This document shows, one piece after another, positions 1,044-63,999 of a stretch of DNA of 64,000 bases. Source of the DNA: Candidatus Daviesbacteria bacterium. Lineage in GTDB: Bacteria; Patescibacteriota; Microgenomatia; Daviesbacterales; UBA10151. The stretch is from assembly GCA_016176465.1 (NCBI GenBank), contig JACOXD010000006.1:7878-71877 (forward strand). Direction: 5' to 3'. Every line of letters starts with the position of its first letter. Positions within the stretch are counted from its first letter, which is position 1. Below the pieces are notes generated by a model. That model saw only the letters and a list, made by a program, of their open reading frames with translations. It searched no databases and was not told the origin of the DNA. Both the position numbers and the translations under genes were made by a program.

Positions 1044-3278
1044 TTACACCTTTTCTTCTTTAGGCTTTGTCCATGAAGCATATTTACAATTTGGGTAATT
1101 TTTACATCCATAAAAAACTCTTCCTTTTTTAGTTCTTCTAACTACTATCTCTCCCCCATCTTGGGGGCATTTAGCATTTATTTTTATATCCAGACTTCCT
1201 GTATATTTACACTCAGGGAAGCCTGAGCAAGCTAAAAACTTACCAAACCTGCCTATTCTAATTACTAAATTTTTGCCACAATTAGGACATTTTTCATCTG
1301 TCATTTCTAGCTCTAATTTAACTTTTCCTGCTTTTTCTTCTGTTTTTTCTAATTTTTCTTCAAAAGGAGTGTAAAAATTTTTTAAAGTTTCTTTCCAGGG
1401 TCTCTCACCCCTTGAGATCTCATCCAATTGATCCTCCATATTAGCCGTAAATTTATAATCAAAAACATCTGGAAAATATTTAATTAAAAAATCCACTACA
1501 GCTATCCCTAAAGGTGTTGGGAATAATTTTCTTTCTTTTCTTTCTATGTAGTAGCGCTCTGTTATTGTGGCTAAAATTGGGGCATAAGTAGAAGGTCTAC
1601 CTATCCCCAGCTCTTCCAGTTTTTTAATTAAAGATGCTTCAGTATACCTGGGAGGAGGTTCAGTAAAGTGTTGAGAAGGCAACACCTGAACCATATTTAA
1701 ATCTTCCCCCTCACTAAGTTTTGGCAAAATCTGCTTTCTTTCATCTTTATCCTGAGCGTCCGCAGTGAGCGAAGCCGAACTGGAGTCGAAGGACTCTTCC
1801 TCAACTTGTTTTACCCCATATACACCCAACCATCCATCAAACTTTAAAACAGAGCCAGTTGCTCTAAGAAGATATTTATTCTTTGGGGGTCCTGCCAGCT
1901 CGGTATCTCGTCGTACCTCCTCATCTTGTAACAACTGCGCTGCGGGGGTGCGCCGAGACCTCTCCTCCCTGTCACCCTCCAAAGAGGTAACTACATCCAC
2001 AGTAGTCTGATCTAAAACAGCCTCATTCATTTGAGAAGCAAGCGTCCTTTTCCAAATTAGATCATAAAGTCTGCCATGATCCCTTGTCAGACCATTCTGA
2101 ATTCCGACATCCGACATCCGATATCCGATCTTGGTTGGCCTAATAGCCTCATGAGCCTCCTGGGCATTTTTTGATTTGGATTTATAAAATTTAGGCTGAT
2201 GGGGTAAATAAGCTTTGCTAAAATTTGAGGAGATATAAGCTCTAATAGCTGATAGCGCTGATTGAGCTAAATTAAAAGAATCAGTTCTCATATAAGTGAT
2301 TAACCCTTGCTCATAAAGGTTTTGCGATAACATCATAGTTTTTTTTGCTGTAAAGCCAAGTTTGTTCCCAGCATTTTGAACTAAAGTAGAAGTGATAAAA
2401 GGAGGGGAGGGGTAGCGTTTAACTTGCTTTTGCGTTATTTTAGAGATCTGATAACTAGCTTCTTTTAGATCAGCTACAATTTTATCTGCTTCTTTTTTGT
2501 CTTTTACATCTGCCTTTTTACCATTTACCTCAATCAGTTTGACAAAAAAGTTTTGCTTTTCAGTATTTTCCAATTCTACTTCTATAACCCAGTATTCTTG
2601 TGGTTTAAACTTCTCAATTTCTCTTTCTTTTTCTACTATTAACCTTAAAGCAACAGATTGAACTCTACCTGCAGATAATCCTCTTTTTATTTTTTGCCAA
2701 AGTAGGGGGGAGAGTTTATAACCTACCAGCCTATCTAAAACTCTCCTAGCTTGTTGAGCATCTACCAATTTTATGTCTATATCTCTTGGGTTTTTAAATG
2801 CATCATCTATAGCTTCTTTAGTAATCTCATGAAAAACGACCCTTTTTATTTGGACAGATTTGGACAAATTCTTTTCTGTTCTATCACCTCCTACTGCCAA
2901 ATCGTCCAATCGAACTTCTCTCTGATCTTGTCCACTTTTAACTTTTAACCTCGGGCCCCCGGATGGGAGTTTAACTTCAGGATTACTCAGTAATTCTGCT
3001 GTGTGCCAAGCAATAGCTTCACCTTCCCTATCAGGGTCTGTGGCTAACCATATTTGTTTAGCTCCCTTTGCTATCTTTTTAAGCTCATTTACCCTTTTTC
3101 TTTTATCTCTGGGAATAATATATTTAGGTTCAAAGTTAGCCTCTATATCTATTCCTAATTCAGCCTTAGGTAAATCCCTAATGTGGCCCATTGAGGCTTC
3201 AATTTGGTAACTATTTCCTAGAAACCTCGCTAGAGTGCGTGCCTTGGTAGGGCTCTCTACTATTACAAGATTATTCAT
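1044..3278 (-). CDS. topA: DNA topoisomerase I
   Basis: N-terminal Toprim segment MNNLVIVESPTKARTLARFLG. Conserved QHFTEPPPRYTEASLIKKLEELGIGRPSTY. C-terminal Cys4 zinc ribbons (CPNCGK...CSGFPEC, CPQDGG...CKNYPNC). Confidence 0.9.
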   Translation of the reverse strand: MNNLVIVESPTKARTLARFLGNSYQIEASMGHIRDLPKAELGIDIEANFEPKYIIPRDKRKRVNELKKIAKGAKQIWLATDPDREGEAIAWHTAELLSNPEVKLPSGGPRLKVKSGQDQREVRLDDLAVGGDRTEKNLSKSVQIKRVVFHEITKEAIDDAFKNPRDIDIKLVDAQQARRVLDRLVGYKLSPLLWQKIKRGLSAGRVQSVALRLIVEKEREIEKFKPQEYWVIEVELENTEKQNFFVKLIEVNGKKADVKDKKEADKIVADLKEASYQISKITQKQVKRYPSPPFITSTLVQNAGNKLGFTAKKTMMLSQNLYEQGLITYMRTDSFNLAQSALSAIRAYISSNFSKAYLPHQPKFYKSKSKNAQEAHEAIRPTKIGYRMSDVGIQNGLTRDHGRLYDLIWKRTLASQMNEAVLDQTTVDVVTSLEGDREERSRRTPAAQLLQDEEVRRDTELAGPPKNKYLLRATGSVLKFDGWLGVYGVKQVEEESFDSSSASLTADAQDKDERKQILPKLSEGEDLNMVQVLPSQHFTEPPPRYTEASLIKKLEELGIGRPSTYAPILATITERYYIERKERKLFPTPLGIAVVDFLIKYFPDVFDYKFTANMEDQLDEISRGERPWKETLKNFYTPFEEKLEKTEEKAGKVKLELEMTDEKCPNCGKNLVIRIGRFGKFLACSGFPECKYTGSLDIKINAKCPQDGGEIVVRRTKKGRVFYGCKNYPNCKYASWTKPKEEKV
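1741..1995. repeat. two GC-rich in-frame insertions in topA resembling the palindromic MITE-like element family
   Basis: nt 1741-1810 (atcctgagcg...cgaagcc...ggagtcgaaggac) matches copies at 35.7 and 50.2 kb. The segment 1900-1995 is GC-rich. In the protein these flank the native FRLKARGRILRFDGW-equivalent segment and add about 20 and 33 residues relative to E. coli TopA. Confidence 0.45.
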
Positions 3279-7645: not shown

Positions 7646-7679
7646 ATACTTAATTTAATCATTTTTTAGTAACTAGAAT

Positions 7680-12036: not shown

Positions 12037-13173
12037 TCAGGGATAGATTACTTGTCCAACTGCTACCATAATTTGCTCACCGTTAAAAACAGGTACTTCT
12101 CTTAAAACTACTTTTTTTACTCTTCCTTTTACTTTTACCCCATTAAAAGGTGTCCAGCCACACTTGGTATATAAAAACTCATTTCTAATCTCCCACTGCT
12201 CATCTAAATCTACCTCTATATAAGTATTATTGTCATCCTGAGCACGGGCCCCCAGAGGGGAGAAGGATCCATTTAGATTCTTCGTCTCGCCAAAGGCGGA
12301 CTCAAAATGACGGGAAGAAAGTCCAAAAACTTTCTTAGGATTAGTTGAGGTTAGTTCTATTACCCTTTCTAAGGTCAATCTCTTCTCAGCTACAGCATTT
12401 AAAAGTAACGGTAGGGTGGTTTCTAACCCTGGGACCCCAAAAGGAGGGTTTTCTGATTTTAATTTTTCATCAACAGTGTGAGGTGCATGATCAGATGCAA
12501 CCATATCCAAAACATCTAAATTTTTCCAAATATATTCAACATCTTTTTTAGAAGATAGCGGTGGTTTCATAATTCCAAAAGGTCCTAATCTTTTTAAATC
12601 TTCATTTGTTAAAAATAGATGATGGGCAGAAACTTCAGCAGTAATTGGCATTCCCGCTTCTTTAGCTATCCTAACTTGATCAATTTCTGAAGCTAGCGAT
12701 AAATGACAAACATGGAGTCTTTGTCCATGACGTTTTGCCAGATCAATCGCCGTGGCTAGGGTCGGACCCTCTGCGTGAACCATAATTATTTTACTCTTGG
12801 GCCAGTTAGCAAAAATTAACTCCAAATCATTTTGATCCTCAATAAGTAGGGGACCTGTGGTGTGATTCATATACACCTTTAGCCCCCAAACTTTTTTCTT
12901 TACTTGTTCAAAAAAAGGAACAGAAACTTTAGAGCCACCAAAGTGAAACCCTAAATCACAAAATATCCTCCCAGGAGCTAAATCTATTTTTTCTTCTAAT
13001 GATATATTGTCAACTATGGGGTTTGGGTTATTGGGCATGTCAAAAATAGTAGTATACCCTCCTGCTATGGCAGCTTTGCTGCCTGTAGCAAAGTCTTCTT
13101 TTTGGATATTCCCAGGCTCTCTTAAGTGAACATGGACATCAACTAGACCTGGCAGTTTAACAATTTTAGACAT
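12037..13173 (-). CDS. pyrC: dihydroorotase carrying an in-frame palindromic-element insertion
   Basis: Metal-binding LPGLVDVHVHLREPG. Amidohydrolase fold. C-terminal region contains a ~28-aa GC-rich insert. Confidence 0.8.
   Translation of the reverse strand: MSKIVKLPGLVDVHVHLREPGNIQKEDFATGSKAAIAGGYTTIFDMPNNPNPIVDNISLEEKIDLAPGRIFCDLGFHFGGSKVSVPFFEQVKKKVWGLKVYMNHTTGPLLIEDQNDLELIFANWPKSKIIMVHAEGPTLATAIDLAKRHGQRLHVCHLSLASEIDQVRIAKEAGMPITAEVSAHHLFLTNEDLKRLGPFGIMKPPLSSKKDVEYIWKNLDVLDMVASDHAPHTVDEKLKSENPPFGVPGLETTLPLLLNAVAEKRLTLERVIELTSTNPKKVFGLSSRHFESAFGETKNLNGSFSPLGARAQDDNNTYIEVDLDEQWEIRNEFLYTKCGWTPFNGVKVKGRVKKVVLREVPVFNGEQIMVAVGQVIYP
12231..12312. repeat. MITE-like palindromic element inserted in-frame within pyrC
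   Basis: tgtcatcctgagcacgggcccccagaggggagaaggatcc...agattcttcgtctcgcc...ctcaaaatgacgg has the family termini and GGGCCCC core. The ORF reads through it. Confidence 0.75.
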
Positions 13174-20945: not shown

Positions 20946-21049
20946 TGTCATTCTGAAGCGCGGGCCCCTTTAGGGAGGAAGGATCTAAAAGAGCTAGATT
21001 CTTCTGGTCCACTGGACCATCAGAATGACAACTTTGCTCAGAATGACAA
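20946..21049. repeat. MITE-like palindromic element at the def/fmt junction
   Basis: tgtcattctgaagcgcgggcccctttagggaggaaggatct...agattcttc...cagaatgaca with an extra terminal half-repeat. The element's ATG is in frame with fmt. Confidence 0.8.
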
Positions 21050-21912
21050 AACTAATTTTTTTTGGAAATACAAAATACTCAATAATTGGAGCAAAGGTTA
21101 TTCATAAAACCTTTCCTTTATCCGCTGTAGTGACAATTCCTGATAAAATTATTGGACGCAAAAAAGAAGTAGTACTCTCCCCTGTTAAAAAATTTGCCAT
21201 TTTGCATAACATCCCAGTTATTGAGACTAATAAATTAACAGATGAGGTGGTAGACAAAATAAAGTATTTAAACCCTGATTTTTTAGTTGTAGAAGATTAT
21301 GGCCTAATTTTACCTTTAAAATTACTAGAGATTCCTAAAATTGCTCCTTTAAACATTCATCACTCCTTACTTCCTAAATATAGAGGCCCATCCCCTGTTC
21401 CCAGCGCAATTTTAAATGGGGAAAAGTTAAGTGGAGTGACTATAATCAGGATGACTAAAGATATAGATGCAGGGGATATTTTAGCACAAAAAGAATATAC
21501 ACTAATACCTAATGAGACTACTGATTCTCTTTTAACTACATTAAACTCAATGGGTGGCGAACTTTTAGTTGATGTGATTAATCAATATTTACAAGGAACC
21601 ACTACACCACAAGCACAGAATAAAGATAAAGCTACTTTAACCAGACTTATAAAAAAAGAGGATGGGTATTTTGATATTGAAAATCCTCCAGACTCTGAGC
21701 AATTAGATAGAATGATTAGAGCTTACTTTCCCTGGCCAAATGTTTGGACAAAATGGAAGGGTAAAGTAGTGAAATTTTATCCCTCTCCCAATCATCCTGA
21801 TTCAGCTTCCGCCGGAGAAGGATCTATTCTTGTACAAATGGAAGGAAAACAAAAAACTCCTCTTAAAGATTTCCTCAATGGCTACCCAAATTTTCCTATA
21901 AAAAAAATTTAA
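21025..21912 (+). CDS. fmt: methionyl-tRNA formyltransferase
   Basis: FFGN...NIHHSLLPKYRGPSP motif. The first ATGs lie inside the element's terminal repeat, so the real start is likely near 21046. Confidence 0.85.
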   Translation: MTTLLRMTKLIFFGNTKYSIIGAKVIHKTFPLSAVVTIPDKIIGRKKEVVLSPVKKFAILHNIPVIETNKLTDEVVDKIKYLNPDFLVVEDYGLILPLKLLEIPKIAPLNIHHSLLPKYRGPSPVPSAILNGEKLSGVTIIRMTKDIDAGDILAQKEYTLIPNETTDSLLTTLNSMGGELLVDVINQYLQGTTTPQAQNKDKATLTRLIKKEDGYFDIENPPDSEQLDRMIRAYFPWPNVWTKWKGKVVKFYPSPNHPDSASAGEGSILVQMEGKQKTPLKDFLNGYPNFPIKKI

Positions 21913-35724: not shown

Positions 35725-35917
35725 TAAGCGTCATCCCCTCGGGTCTGAGCTCCCCGAGTCTGAGCCTCGGAGTCGAAGACCTGAAGCGCATTAGTAATTG
35801 TCATCCTGAAGCGCGGGCCCCTTTAGGGAGGAAGGATCTCAGGATCTAGATTCTTCGCCTTCGGCTCAGAATGACAAAAAAATATCAGAATGACACAATA
35901 AGTCAGAACGACACAAT
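35725..35917. repeat. composite of two adjacent palindromic MITE-like elements (two subfamilies)
   Basis: gcgtcatcccctcgggtctgagc...ggagtcgaagacctgaagcgc followed by tgtcatcctgaagcgcgggcccctttagggaggaaggatct...gctcagaatgacaaaaaaatatcagaatgacacaataagtcagaacgacaca. Confidence 0.8.
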
Positions 35918-35923
35918 AAATAT

Positions 35924-41195: not shown

Positions 41196-41344
41196 AAAAA
41201 GCCCCGCTTAAAGCGAGGCCAGTTGTACAAGTAGTTCCAAATTGCTTGAAACTCGGCGGCTCACCGTCCTTTGTCCCTGCCAACTTGTTGTAGCTGTATG
41301 TTACCACAATTATTATATTAATGTAAAGACATATTTCTTCTTAA

Positions 41345-45102: not shown

Positions 45103-45218
45103 TGTCATCTTGAGCCTCCTCCTTGTCATCCTGATCAGGCGAAGCCTGAGAAGGATCTAGACTCTTCCTCCCTAAAGGGGCCCGCGGCTCAGAATGACAA
45201 AATAAACATCAGAATGAC
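45103..45218. repeat. MITE-like palindromic element (inverted orientation) with tandem terminal repeat
   Basis: tgtcatcttgagcc...tgtcatcctgatcaggcgaagcc...ggatctagactcttcctccctaaaggggcccgcggctcagaatgacaaaataaacatcagaatgac. Confidence 0.8.
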
Positions 45219-50226: not shown

Positions 50227-50368
50227 TGTTATCCTTTCGGGTCTGAGCCTCAGGGTCGAAGACCTGATCTTTCCTCTCGTCATCCTGAGGGCAAAACCCG
50301 AAGGATCTAGTCTAGAGATTCTTCACTTAGTACGCTCAGAATGACAATGAGTATACTTAGAACGACAC
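50227..50368. repeat. MITE-like palindromic element (composite subfamilies) between GT2 genes
   Basis: gttatcctttcgggtctgagcctcagggtcgaagacctg...cgtcatcctgagggcaaaacccgaaggatctagtctagagattcttc...gctcagaatgacaatgagtatacttagaacgacaca. Confidence 0.8.
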
Positions 50369-57184: not shown

Positions 57185-57252
57185 TGTCATTCTGAGCGAA
57201 GCGAAGAATCTAATTAGATCCTTCAATCGTTTCACTCCTTCAGGATGACAAT
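57185..57252. repeat. MITE-like palindromic element (minimal form)
   Basis: gtgtcattctgagcgaagcgaagaatctaattagatccttcaatcgtttcactccttcaggatgacaa. Confidence 0.85.
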
Positions 57253-60391: not shown

Positions 60392-60433
60392 TGAGTTCTT
60401 AGATCCTTCGCTAAAACGCTCAGGATGACACGA
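60392..60433. repeat. half MITE-like element
   Basis: gagttcttagatccttcgctaaaacgctcaggatgacac matches the right arm of the family. Confidence 0.6.
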
Positions 60434-60592: not shown

Positions 60593-61138
60593 ATGCCTAA
60601 AACAAGACAACAAAAGAAAGATTTAGTAACTAAATTAGCTGAGAAGTTAGCTAGAGCTTCCAGCGTAGTTTTTGCAGACTATCGAGGCCTTACTATGGCA
60701 AAGCTACAAGAGCTTAGGAAAGCTTTAAGGGAGCAAGAAGCAGAGTTTAGCATAACCAAAAACAACTTGCTCAAACTGGCAATAAAAGACTCATCACTCA
60801 TTACTAATTACCCATCACTGTTTGAGGGTCCAACTGCAACTCTCTTTGCTTATGGTGACCAAATCTTACCATTAAAAACTATGACAAAATTAATTAAAGA
60901 TACTAAAATTGGGGAAATAAAATTAGGTTTAATGGATGGGGAGATTTTAGATAAATATGCAATTGAAAAACTTGCTTCCCTTCCTTCAAAAGATGAACTT
61001 AGAGCTAAAATTGTGGGAAGCTTGGGCGCTCCACTTTATGGAATTGTTGGGGTTTTGCAAGCTAATTTAAGGAATTTAGTTTACGCACTAGATGGAATTA
61101 GAAAACAAAAAGGAGGTGACATACAAATGTCATCTTGA
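60593..61138 (+). CDS. rplJ: ribosomal protein uL10
   Basis: VVFADYRGLTMAKLQELRKALRE...EFSITKN. Stop codon lies inside a MITE terminal repeat. Confidence 0.9.
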   Translation: MPKTRQQKKDLVTKLAEKLARASSVVFADYRGLTMAKLQELRKALREQEAEFSITKNNLLKLAIKDSSLITNYPSLFEGPTATLFAYGDQILPLKTMTKLIKDTKIGEIKLGLMDGEILDKYAIEKLASLPSKDELRAKIVGSLGAPLYGIVGVLQANLRNLVYALDGIRKQKGGDIQMSS

Positions 61139-61201
61139 GCGTAAGCGAAAGATCTCAAGATTTAAGTCTTTAGATTCTTCGTCTTCGCCTCAGAATGACA
61201 A
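61128..61201. repeat. MITE-like palindromic element spanning the rplJ stop / rplL start
   Basis: tgtcatcttgagcgtaagcgaaagatctcaagatttaagtctttagattcttcgtcttcgcctcagaatgacaa. Confidence 0.85.
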
Positions 61202-62252: not shown

Positions 62253-63032
62253 CTATTTTTTCAGAATTAAGAAAATAAATTTCACAAGAGCATCAAATCT
62301 TTTTATCCTCCAAGGTTGAACTATTAATCTAAATAACCATTCAAATCCTATCAGTCTAATAAAAAGTGGTGCTCTTGGAATCTTTCCTGAGATATAATCA
62401 AGGGTGCCTCCAACACCGATAAATACTTTACTATCAATATGTTTTATATTTTCCTTGATCCATTTCTCTTGCTTTCCATGACCAAAAGCTACCAATAAAA
62501 TATCAACTTTTTCTATTTTTATTTTTTCATTATTTAGCATTTCTCCATCACTACTTATTTTTCCACCATGATCTGTATAGACAATTTTCAAATTGGGAAA
62601 TTTAGTTAACAAGCGCTCTTTTGCTTTGGCTGCTACATTTTTTTGCCCTCCCAAAAGGCCTATTCTAAAGCCTTTTTCCTCACAAATAGACATAAATTTC
62701 AGTATTAAATCTGTACCAGTTACTGTAGGAAATTTGCTTTCTATCAATTTAGGAAATATAAAAAAAGGCCAGTAGATCAATTTCACTATAAAGTTGTTAG
62801 TTTCTAAAACTTTTAGTGCCCATCCTAACCTAGAACTATCGGGAATAGATAAATCTGCATCATTTATTATTTTTTTAAATTCTAAATCTTTCTGAGCCTG
62901 TATAATTATTTCTACATTGGTTGTGACTATATAGTGTTTACCCTGGCCACTAATCCAGACTTGAATATGTTTTAAAACATCTTGGTAATTTACTTTACTT
63001 ACTTTTACTCCTAAGATATTAACTTGCTCCAC
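62253..63032 (-). CDS. WecB/TagA/CpsF-family (GT26) glycosyltransferase
   Basis: VNILGVKVSKVNYQDVL...DADLSIPDSSRLGWAL N-terminus and overall length are typical of GT26. Confidence 0.7.
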   Translation of the reverse strand: MEQVNILGVKVSKVNYQDVLKHIQVWISGQGKHYIVTTNVEIIIQAQKDLEFKKIINDADLSIPDSSRLGWALKVLETNNFIVKLIYWPFFIFPKLIESKFPTVTGTDLILKFMSICEEKGFRIGLLGGQKNVAAKAKERLLTKFPNLKIVYTDHGGKISSDGEMLNNEKIKIEKVDILLVAFGHGKQEKWIKENIKHIDSKVFIGVGGTLDYISGKIPRAPLFIRLIGFEWLFRLIVQPWRIKRFDALVKFIFLILKK

Positions 63033-63999
63033 TGTTTACCTCCTTAAATAGCTTAAGTGTCTCTTTTGCAGCTATCTGCCAAGAAAATTTATTTAACTGC
63101 AAATAACCCTTTTTTGTTAGTTTATCCCTAAAATTATTATCCGTTAATTTGATCATACCATCTCTAATTGCATCAATATTATAAGGGTCAACCAAAATGG
63201 CTGCCTCACCTGCAACTTCAGGTAAGGAGGAAATATTTGAAGTTAAAACAGGACAGCCACAAGAGAAAGCCTCCAATATAGGCAAGCCAAATCCTTCAAA
63301 CAGGGAAGGATATACTAAACCTAGTGCTCCGGAATACAAAGCAGGCAAATCCCTATCTTCCACCCTGCCCAGAAATTTTACTTTACCTTCAATTCCCAGC
63401 TTCTTTGGTAACTCGTAAATTTCATCAGATTTCCACCCTTTATCTCCTACTAAAACTAATTTAATACTGTCATTCTGAACCGAAGGTGAAGAATCTATCA
63501 AACTATTCTTTCGCACTTGAGATCCTTCCTCGCTAAAAGGGGCCCGTGCCCTCAGGATGACATCACTAAAAGCCTTAATTAATCTCTCCAGATTTTTCCT
63601 TGGCTGAATTGTTCCTACAAAGAGAAAAAAGTTTTTTGATACTAGGTTATACTGCCTCAAACTGTTTACTAACATCTTACCTTTGACAGCTTTAAATACC
63701 TCTCTATCTACTCCTTCATAAATAACTTTAATTTTTTCCTCCTTAATCCCTACTTTTTCTACTAAATCTTTCTTTGTAGCATTTGATACTGCAATAATTT
63801 TTATGGCAGTTTTGAGTTGAATTTTGGTTATAAATTTTAGATATAAGATTTGTTTTAGCTGATGGTATCCAGGCAGGTATTCTGAACCCAAATCATGAAC
63901 AGTAAGTACAGTTTTAAGTCTTGGATTTCTAACTATGGGCAAAGTATGCGCAGGTATAAAAAGAAGATCTAAGTTATCCTTAAAGGTTTCAATTCCCAA
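63019..63999 (-). CDS. GT4-family glycosyltransferase (N-terminus beyond window) with in-frame palindromic-element insertion
   Basis: C-terminal GT-B motifs FLFVGTIQPRKN...LVLVGDKGW...PSLFEGFGLPILEAFSCGCPVLTS. A 32-codon GC-rich insert sits between the beta-strand and the LVLVGD motif. Confidence 0.75.
   Translation of the reverse strand: MGIETFKDNLDLLFIPAHTLPIVRNPRLKTVLTVHDLGSEYLPGYHQLKQILYLKFITKIQLKTAIKIIAVSNATKKDLVEKVGIKEEKIKVIYEGVDREVFKAVKGKMLVNSLRQYNLVSKNFFLFVGTIQPRKNLERLIKAFSDVILRARAPFSEEGSQVRKNSLIDSSPSVQNDSIKLVLVGDKGWKSDEIYELPKKLGIEGKVKFLGRVEDRDLPALYSGALGLVYPSLFEGFGLPILEAFSCGCPVLTSNISSLPEVAGEAAILVDPYNIDAIRDGMIKLTDNNFRDKLTKKGYLQLNKFSWQIAAKETLKLFKEVNSGAS
63468..63563. repeat. MITE-like palindromic element inserted in-frame in the GT4 gene
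   Basis: tgtcattctgaaccgaaggtgaagaatct...gatccttcctcgctaaaaggggcccgtgccctcaggatgacat. 96 nt = 32 codons, read through as ...SDVILRARAPFSEEGSQVRKNSLIDSSPSVQNDS... Confidence 0.8.

Follow-up and report, generated by a model that had tools for sequence, protein, structure and literature searches.

What are the GC-rich segments that interrupt topA in a Candidatus Daviesbacteria bacterium, a member of the candidate phyla radiation, and how has the gene of an essential enzyme come to hold them? The gene, which encodes type IA DNA topoisomerase I, lies in a 64-kb stretch of DNA from this organism, referred to here as the window. An earlier reading of the sequence alone (the sequence-only reading) had picked out two segments of topA, 1741–1810 (segment 1) and 1900–1995 (segment 2), and had taken both for decayed copies of a single palindromic repeat family found between genes of the window. 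It is highly likely from the analysis presented below that the GC-rich segments of topA are selfish, small hairpin repeat elements of two families, called here family 1 and family 2, which have survived in frame in tolerant loops of the protein. The gene and the sites within it are as follows.

1044–3278, minus strand: topA, type IA DNA topoisomerase I, 744 amino acids (aa); the open reading frame (ORF) that hosts all the inserts
1749–1796, plus strand, antisense to topA: site B, one outer family 1 unit (ATCCTGAGCG...GAGTCGAAGGAC), recognised by a gapped pattern and by ortholog DNA
1763–1782, plus strand: mini-hairpin CAGTGAGCGAAGCCGAACTG, contained within the loop of the outer unit at site B and recognised in a five-genome alignment of site B DNA
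1886–1977, plus strand, antisense to topA: site A, a copy of about 92 nucleotides (nt) of the family 2 long-hairpin element, recognised by DNA alignment to the insert of ortholog P0023
2865–2969, minus strand: site C, an insert of about 40 aa in a loop of the TOPRIM domain (aa 103–140), with low occupancy in an alignment of 120 sequences and no E. coli counterpart

The inserts and the loops that hold them

NCBI has a protein from Candidatus Daviesbacteria bacterium, under the name type I DNA topoisomerase, to which the TopA of the window is 100% identical; in HMMER, the window TopA matches E. coli TopA structures with an expect value (E) of 1e-146. The motifs that flank the inserts align with those of E. 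coli TopA and of the orthologs, and a single ORF of 744 aa runs unbroken and free of stop codons across all the inserts, which are in frame and 16–40 aa long. The HMMER alignment to E. coli TopA is interrupted by three breaks. Residues 102–142 are without an E. coli counterpart, and residues 430–507 correspond to only 24 E. coli residues (418–441), an excess of about 54 residues, which surround YLLRATGSVLKFDGW (in E. coli, FRLKARGRILRFDGW). The sequence-only reading had arrived at about 33 and about 20 additional residues, in agreement with this figure. The catalytic tyrosine is Y329, in the motif GLITYMRTDS; by the published domain limits and the E. coli alignment, sites A and B belong to domain II (the arch), away from Y329.

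The unusual composition of the two segments was likewise borne out. Their GC contents are 51% (1741–1810) and 57% (1900–1995), against 35.5% for topA minus the inserts and 35.6% for the window as a whole. In the insert cores the values rise to 60% (1749–1796) and 64% (1886–1977), the latter a level that no more than a 3e-5 fraction of the 92-nt windows across the 64 kb attain. A reading of the inserts as an intein or an intron was rejected; they span 16–40 aa, precomputed Pfam annotation gives the protein Toprim, Topoisom_bac and zinc-ribbon domains and nothing else, with no splicing domain among them, and Rfam gives no match in topA.

The inserts were mapped on an AlphaFold model of TopA computed from 32 sequences, with a mean predicted local distance difference test score (pLDDT) of 71. 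The score falls below 50 at aa 103–140, 443–464 and 494–513, which are the three inserts, and the flanks are modelled as more confident strands and helices. Site A is bordered by strands 420–433 and 469–480, which in the model would place it at the tip of a β-hairpin. The inserts are thus predicted to occupy disordered loops compatible with the fold. The peptides encoded by the palindromic elements of Rickettsia are reportedly also found on the protein surface, where they are compatible with the fold.

Hairpin families 1 and 2 at sites B and A

Repeat finding and pattern searches over the window revealed 18 clear units of family 1. Each unit is a hairpin of about 30–45 nt, made up of a tag, TGTC or sometimes CGTC, an arm AT[CT]CTGA, a variable inner stem–loop, an arm GAAG[AG]AT and a tail CT. 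The tag is TGTC in 15 units, CGTC in two and AATC in one. Of its ten loci in the window, eight consist of two units in inverted arrangement, their tags pointing outward.

12232–12311: family 1 inverted pair
20947–21029: family 1 inverted pair
35800–35875: family 1 inverted pair
45125–45198: family 1 inverted pair
50279–50345: family 1 inverted pair
57186–57249: family 1 inverted pair
61129–61199: family 1 inverted pair
63469–63561: family 1 inverted pair
21791–21825: family 1 single unit
60401–60429: family 1 single unit

In the proposed stem of family 1, 88% of cells pair, against 74% in shuffles, and the covariation score of 0.378, against 0.170, was reached by none of 500 shuffles; the signal was lost when the partner columns were slid. 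Since covariation supports it, we consider the stem to be real. It opens with A-T in all 18 units, followed by T-A in 17 and T-G in one, and consists of 5 bp, a 2 × 2 G-A/A-G internal loop and at least 3 further bp. The loops run from 4 to about 25 nt, and some hold a nested module, CGGGCCCC...GGGAG. Rfam contains no family that matches the elements.

Three further observations concern the variety within these repeats. Variant units at 35731–35786 and 50232–50268, which adjoin standard pairs, have arms GGTCT...AGACC and retain the inner consensus CTGAGC...GTCGAAG. Across subfamilies the outer arms covary (ATCCT/AGGAT, ATTCT/AGAAT and GGTCT/AGACC, with CCCT/AGGG in orthologs). The element end TCAGAATGACA recurs every 18–19 nt or so just beyond complete elements (35866–35923, 45189–45218 and 21020–21047), in extra copies that resemble subterminal repeats.

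Site B corresponds to segment 1, and its plus strand at 1749–1796 reads ATCCTGAGCG TCCGCAGTGAGCGAAGCCGAACTG GAGTCGAAGGAC. The gapped pattern AT[CT]CTGA-N5-35-GAAG[AG]A has 16 matches in the window, 15 of them at recognised element sites and the sixteenth at site B; Markov shuffles average 0.6. Of the motifs that the sequence-only reading had described as shared with the window elements, ATCCTGAGCG stands up well: it is exact at 1749, its sole other exact occurrence (60417, minus strand) is within an element, and with one mismatch allowed it has nine matches where 1.2 are expected. GGAGTCGAAGGAC fares less well, as the copy at 1782 differs from that at 35769 by two mismatches, a result equalled by 5 of 100 shuffles and so not significant alone.

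The outer unit of site B is also present, at the DNA level, in L001, L088 and L090, with neither its place nor its orientation changed. In P0002, which at 70% identity is the closest ortholog, site B reads GTCCTGAGCG-GAGTCGAAGGATTC in that orientation, encoding SFDSAQDK without a 24-nt inner piece. The peptide encoded by site B in the window is SFDS[SSASLTAD]AQDK, at about aa 495–510, and the 24 nt (8 aa) unique to it are accounted for by the nested mini-hairpin at 1763–1782 (CAG-TGAGCG-AAGC-CGAA-CTG), which has the same design as the outer unit. P0016 and P0005 share the outer unit, but the unit nested at this point is a different one in each; a related unit in P0039 encodes FDYAQGK. On the strength of the gapped pattern and of the outer unit shared with orthologs, site B is, as judged from sequence, a unit of family 1. 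Because the same unit stands at the same place in three other orthologs, we infer, from position rather than from a tree, that the outer unit goes back to an ancestor in common with those orthologs and that the nested hairpin was gained later.

Site A, which corresponds to segment 2, encodes EGDREERSRRTPAAQLLQDEEVRRDTELAGP at about aa 434–465. The translation of its plus strand, GGPASSVSRRTSS...AAGVRRDLSSLSP, matches an insert reading PGPASSVSRRTSSLSGSAGSAAGVRQDLSELSP in P0023, a Daviesbacteria topA product in which the element occupies a different loop (site D, at about aa 225) in the sense orientation. At the DNA level, the local alignment of site A with the P0023 insert scores 78 and covers both over their full length; the left arm has about 33 identities in 35 bases and the right arm 31 in 37 (about 84–94%), and only the central hairpin differs. 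A third copy was found in a metagenome scan with a 21-base pattern. It lies in frame in a 753-aa PolA, in the linker between the exonuclease and polymerase domains. The two copies outside the window are as follows.

L086, 4069–4167: family 2 copy, in frame in the topA of P0023
L087, 2949–3047: family 2 copy, in frame in polA

These two copies are identical over a core of 97 nt and differ only in their flanks, which argues for recent transposition, and we regard family 2 as demonstrably mobile on these sequences. L086 and L087 are metagenome contigs of equal GC content (38.5–38.9%), and may derive from one organism. A family 2 model built from the three copies, site A itself included, matches site A in nhmmer with E = 8e-24. 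The family is predicted to fold as a single long, imperfect hairpin, with an energy of −52 kcal/mol in the case of the P0023 copy and of −35.7 kcal/mol in that of the plus strand of site A (z = −2.0); folding of site A on the mRNA strand is no better than that of shuffles. The site A copy is open in four of its six reading frames. There is no second copy of family 2 within the window, and inspection of the flanks of site A revealed no consistent direct repeat. Overall, the alignments indicate that site A is a fairly well kept copy of family 2 and not a decayed copy of family 1.

Filled and empty sites in orthologs, and elements in other genes

A protein search gave 119 further TopA sequences of 650–759 aa with 58–70% identity, mostly from Daviesbacteria where the source is named, and the resulting 120 sequences, that of the window included, were aligned with MAFFT. 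The sequence-only reading had proposed such an alignment as a check, and its outcome is that the inserts are lineage-specific: columns occupied in fewer than 30% of the sequences cover aa 107–138, 441–464 and 497–505 of the window protein. Length varies across the TopA family at these three places and also around aa 239, a fourth. Many orthologs have no insert at site A, which TTVDV and YLLRATGS delimit (TTVDVSAS-DYLLRATGS); the site exceeds the baseline by at least 8 aa in 44 of the 120 sequences, again counting that of the window. Family 1-type peptides (HPERSEGS, VILG...ARMT), as matched by an ad hoc regular expression, are present in 13 of these 44.

In L082, L083 and L084, inverted pairs are recognisable in the DNA, in frame at exactly site A; the L082 pair reads TGTCATTCTGG...CCAGAATCT...GATTCTGG...CCAGAATGACA. 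The covariance model scores these pairs at E = 9e-9 for L084, 0.011 (weak) for L082 and 0.5 for L083. The same kind of in-frame insert occurs in independent assemblies from NCBI, ENA, JGI and Logan. Further long inserts at sites D and A, in P0016, P0118 and P0076, have in common the peptide GPVGSQPHSTSS...AGAQ...PLAATPR; their sequences suggest that at least one more element family may target the same TopA loops.

The third insert, at site C, had escaped the sequence-only reading and is of mixed make-up. It contains remnants of a heptamer array, about 70 nt that match nothing, and, at 2949–2969 on the plus strand, the 21-nt module CCTCGGGCCCCCGGATGGGAG, which splits the array remnant. The module is of the CGGGCCCCC..GGGAG type, a pattern confined in the window to the loops of family 1 elements and site C (six matches against 0.26 expected). 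Orthologs fill the same loop in frame with heptamers such as (GTCAAAA)3-4, encoding SEVKSQKSKVK. The window has many tandem repeats whose period is 7 nt (at 7673, 10689, 18286, 18842, 18883, 60561 and 60789), and topA itself has, at 2103–2128, 3.7 copies of the heptamer TCCGACA, encoding IGYRMSDVG.

The copies in the window had been described as intergenic, which is incorrect for several of them. The dihydroorotase ORF (12037–13173, minus strand) contains a complete family 1 inverted pair in frame, at 12232–12311, encoding SRHFESAFGETKNLNGSFSPLGARAQDD and appearing as a clean 28-aa gap against the dihydroorotase domain of human CAD. In an ORF for a family 1 glycosyltransferase (63022–63999, minus strand), an inverted pair in frame at 63469–63561 encodes VILRARAPFSEEGSQVRKNSLIDSSPSVQND, and the Pfam match is about 22 residues longer in the protein than in the profile; from its sequence, this protein probably also carries an element insert. 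In fmt (21025–21912, plus strand) the single unit at 21791–21825 encodes NHPDSASAGEGS, with the length of the protein unchanged in comparison with a solved Fmt structure.

Elements also fill spacers. That between def and fmt is wholly element (20947–21047), and the repeated ...CAGAATGACA ends supply candidate ATG starts for fmt. The rplJ–rplL spacer is filled by the pair at 61129–61199, where a TGA in the left end (ATCTTGA) is the stop of the L10 ORF; an ATG in the right end (GAATGACA) opens an ORF that extends about 50 residues beyond a typical L7/L12, the true start being uncertain. Elsewhere, 41217–41291 on the minus strand matches the DUF3800-II RNA of Rfam with 55 bits, against a gathering score of 43.2.

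Origin of the inserts and their likeness to known repeats

We consider that hairpin repeat elements of the kind described above insert widely and that, in essential genes, the only copies to persist would be those in frame, free of stops and in permissive loops. For their movement the elements may take the form of single-stranded hairpins and depend on a transposase that acts in trans, a route proposed for repetitive extragenic palindromic (REP) elements. Selection would merely filter which insertions persist, and the encoded peptides would have no function of their own. Claims of the sequence-only reading that are retained here are that the insertions are in-frame elements in variable loops of an essential enzyme, that segment 1 belongs to the element family of the window, and that the palindromic elements of Rickettsia are an apt comparison.

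A number of results weigh against this explanation. The profile search that the sequence-only reading had named as a test gave no significant match. With nhmmer and an 18-unit family 1 model run over the window, the best match in topA was 1749–1774 at E = 0.23, and the covariance model of family 1 (R1), with filters off, gave 1752–1774 at E = 7; segment 2 gave nothing in either. The failure at site B is probably due to the long nested loop; the covariance model also missed the simpler copy in P0002. The tag at site B is degenerate (TTTATC in place of TGTC), and the RNA fold of this site is no better than shuffled (z = −0.4). Smith–Waterman comparison with the library of window elements, run with shuffled controls, was marginal for segments 1 and 2 (p = 0.02–0.04), null for a control segment and null for site C, including the 70 or so nt that match nothing. 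The peptide signature applied to the orthologs was of our own ad hoc making. Family 2 is known from three copies, none of them intergenic; the metagenome scan with its 21-base pattern found one locus only, a scan of viral contigs found no match, and a comparison of 1.84 billion representative proteins with the plus-frame peptide of site A returned three matches, all of them unrelated repeat proteins. Family 2 is therefore rare in the data reached. Finally, no transposase or target-site duplication was identified, the ORFs of the window not having been scanned for Y1/HUH transposases. The assignment to families is made in spite of the null profiles because it draws on the gapped pattern test, the filled and empty sites in orthologs and the DNA alignments between genomes.

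The best surviving of the other explanations is domestication, which the sequence-only reading had suggested: the former elements would now be functional parts of TopA, with domain II loops that contact DNA or a partner protein and are maintained by selection. Its proponents could point to the outer unit of site B, whose position and frame are unchanged in four orthologs with no more than 60–70% protein identity, to the repeated filling of the same four loops across the 120 orthologs, and to the fact that the only family 1 units found by the covariance model in L082, L083 and L084 are inside topA, although these loci were chosen for a TopA signature. Against it, many orthologs are empty at site A, and where the sites are filled, the sequences are unrelated, come from several repeat families and occur in either orientation and in differing frames; the sequences at the sites are not conserved among orthologs; the model predicts disorder at the inserts, which occupy its lowest-confidence loops; and the same elements are present in proteins as unrelated as dihydroorotase, the glycosyltransferase and PolA. 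We find nothing that positively supports domestication, and judge it decidedly unlikely.

The proposal that a single palindromic family, the one seen between genes of the window, gave rise to both segments as decayed copies is highly improbable, even though half of it stands, in that segment 1 fits the family 1 pattern. For segment 2, it might be argued that a 17-nt stretch, CTCCTCCnTGTCAnCCT, is shared with 45115–45132 (local alignment p of about 0.03) and that there is a faint likeness between the family 2 end (CTGTCACCC) and the family 1 head (TGTCATCC). Yet the family 1 models, whether run with nhmmer or as a covariance model, give no match in 1886–1977, and segment 2 aligns end to end with a different element of about 95 nt that has a long-hairpin fold of its own. 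Nor is it decayed, given arms about 84–94% identical to copies in another genome.

That the loops expanded by slippage or duplication and are GC-rich through their amino-acid composition, or that they are assembly artefacts, is scarcely conceivable: loop length does vary in all orthologs, some fillings are plain tandem repeats (the heptamer arrays of site C) and the profile searches are not significant, but composition cannot explain the nucleotide homology of site A to an insert in polA and to a topA insert in the opposite orientation and a different frame, site B has the conserved arms of a repeat family, and the independent assemblies show the same kind of insert.

The hairpin-element explanation, which we prefer, gains from comparison with known repeats. 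The superfamily of CGTC/TGTC-tagged REPs (Di Nocera et al. 2013; PMC3733652) includes RPE-4 and RPE-6 of Rickettsia, where RPE stands for Rickettsia palindromic element, and dRS3 of Neisseria. Intragenic pairs of these REPs encode 20–30 aa, many of them in genes of replication and repair (PMC3733652). Family 1 resembles them in its unpaired tag, which is often TGTC rather than CGTC, in a stem that opens A-T, T-A, in a short unpaired tail, in the predominance of inverted pairs and in having copies inside genes; no dedicated transposase is known for those REPs. It departs from them in several respects. Their stems are continuous over 8–9 bp, whereas that of family 1 comprises 5 bp, a G-A/A-G internal loop and at least 3 bp; their loops are of 4–5 nt, whereas those of family 1 vary between 4 and about 25 nt and may have further hairpins nested in them; and the tail is CTA rather than CCA. 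Moreover, the host is a candidate-phyla-radiation bacterium, a group outside the PMC3733652 survey, and the topA copy is without an intact tag. Because the stem and loop dimensions differ, family 1 is REP-like and not one of the four described CGTC families.

Family 2 invites comparison with RPE-1. In the account of Ogata et al. 2000, as conveyed by PMC3184786 and PMC3733652, RPE-1 is palindromic, about 100–150 nt long and in frame in many unrelated genes, essential ones included, of a small reduced genome. The element of about 95 nt described here is likewise palindromic and in frame in unrelated genes. Unlike RPE-1, it is represented by three copies only, none intergenic, and the likeness is one of description rather than of sequence comparison. 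Again unlike RPE-1, several families, nested insertions and heptamer arrays stack here at the same loops of one protein across many species. Internal, in-frame fusion of repeats into genes is established for Rickettsia RPEs and for other families of REPs and of MITEs, or miniature inverted-repeat transposable elements (PMC3184786, PMC3733652).

The elements also share features with REPIN/RAYT systems and MITEs, being small, non-autonomous hairpin repeats that often form inverted doublets foldable into one long hairpin. REPIN/RAYT elements and MITEs are thought to be mobilised by a transposase supplied in trans. The elements here differ in that they have no GTAG tag and show no target-site duplication and no terminal inverted repeat of a known insertion sequence; no RAYT or IS200-type gene was found, none having been looked for. 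In the paper library searched, no work links Patescibacteria with REP or MITE elements, which is the main reason why the finding matters, and a search of the literature for the element sequence returned primers only.

The finding reveals no new mechanism. It extends a process known from Rickettsia and a few other lineages to a Daviesbacteria genome, where more than one loop of an essential enzyme and, over 64 kb, more than one gene are affected; further interest lies in the way in which several element families, nested insertions and heptamer arrays converge on shared loops of a single essential enzyme. Repeat DNA, and not new domains, is the source of much of the variation in length of these TopA orthologs (650–759 aa), and such inserts can distort alignments, trees and structure predictions. 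The 120 orthologs, with their filled and empty sites, their several element families and their nested insertions, offer a natural experiment on which sites in a protein tolerate insertion and on how hairpin elements choose their targets. One may also ask whether, in bacteria of the candidate phyla radiation, hairpin elements preferentially target, or are preferentially retained in, the domain II loops of TopA and, more generally, genes of DNA metabolism such as topA and polA. We think this unlikely, though a cause could possibly be found in single-stranded hairpin transposition where these enzymes or genes are engaged, or else in an advantage of longer loops on the topoisomerase arch. If it were true, the repeated capture of repeat DNA would be a general route to new protein loops in these small genomes.

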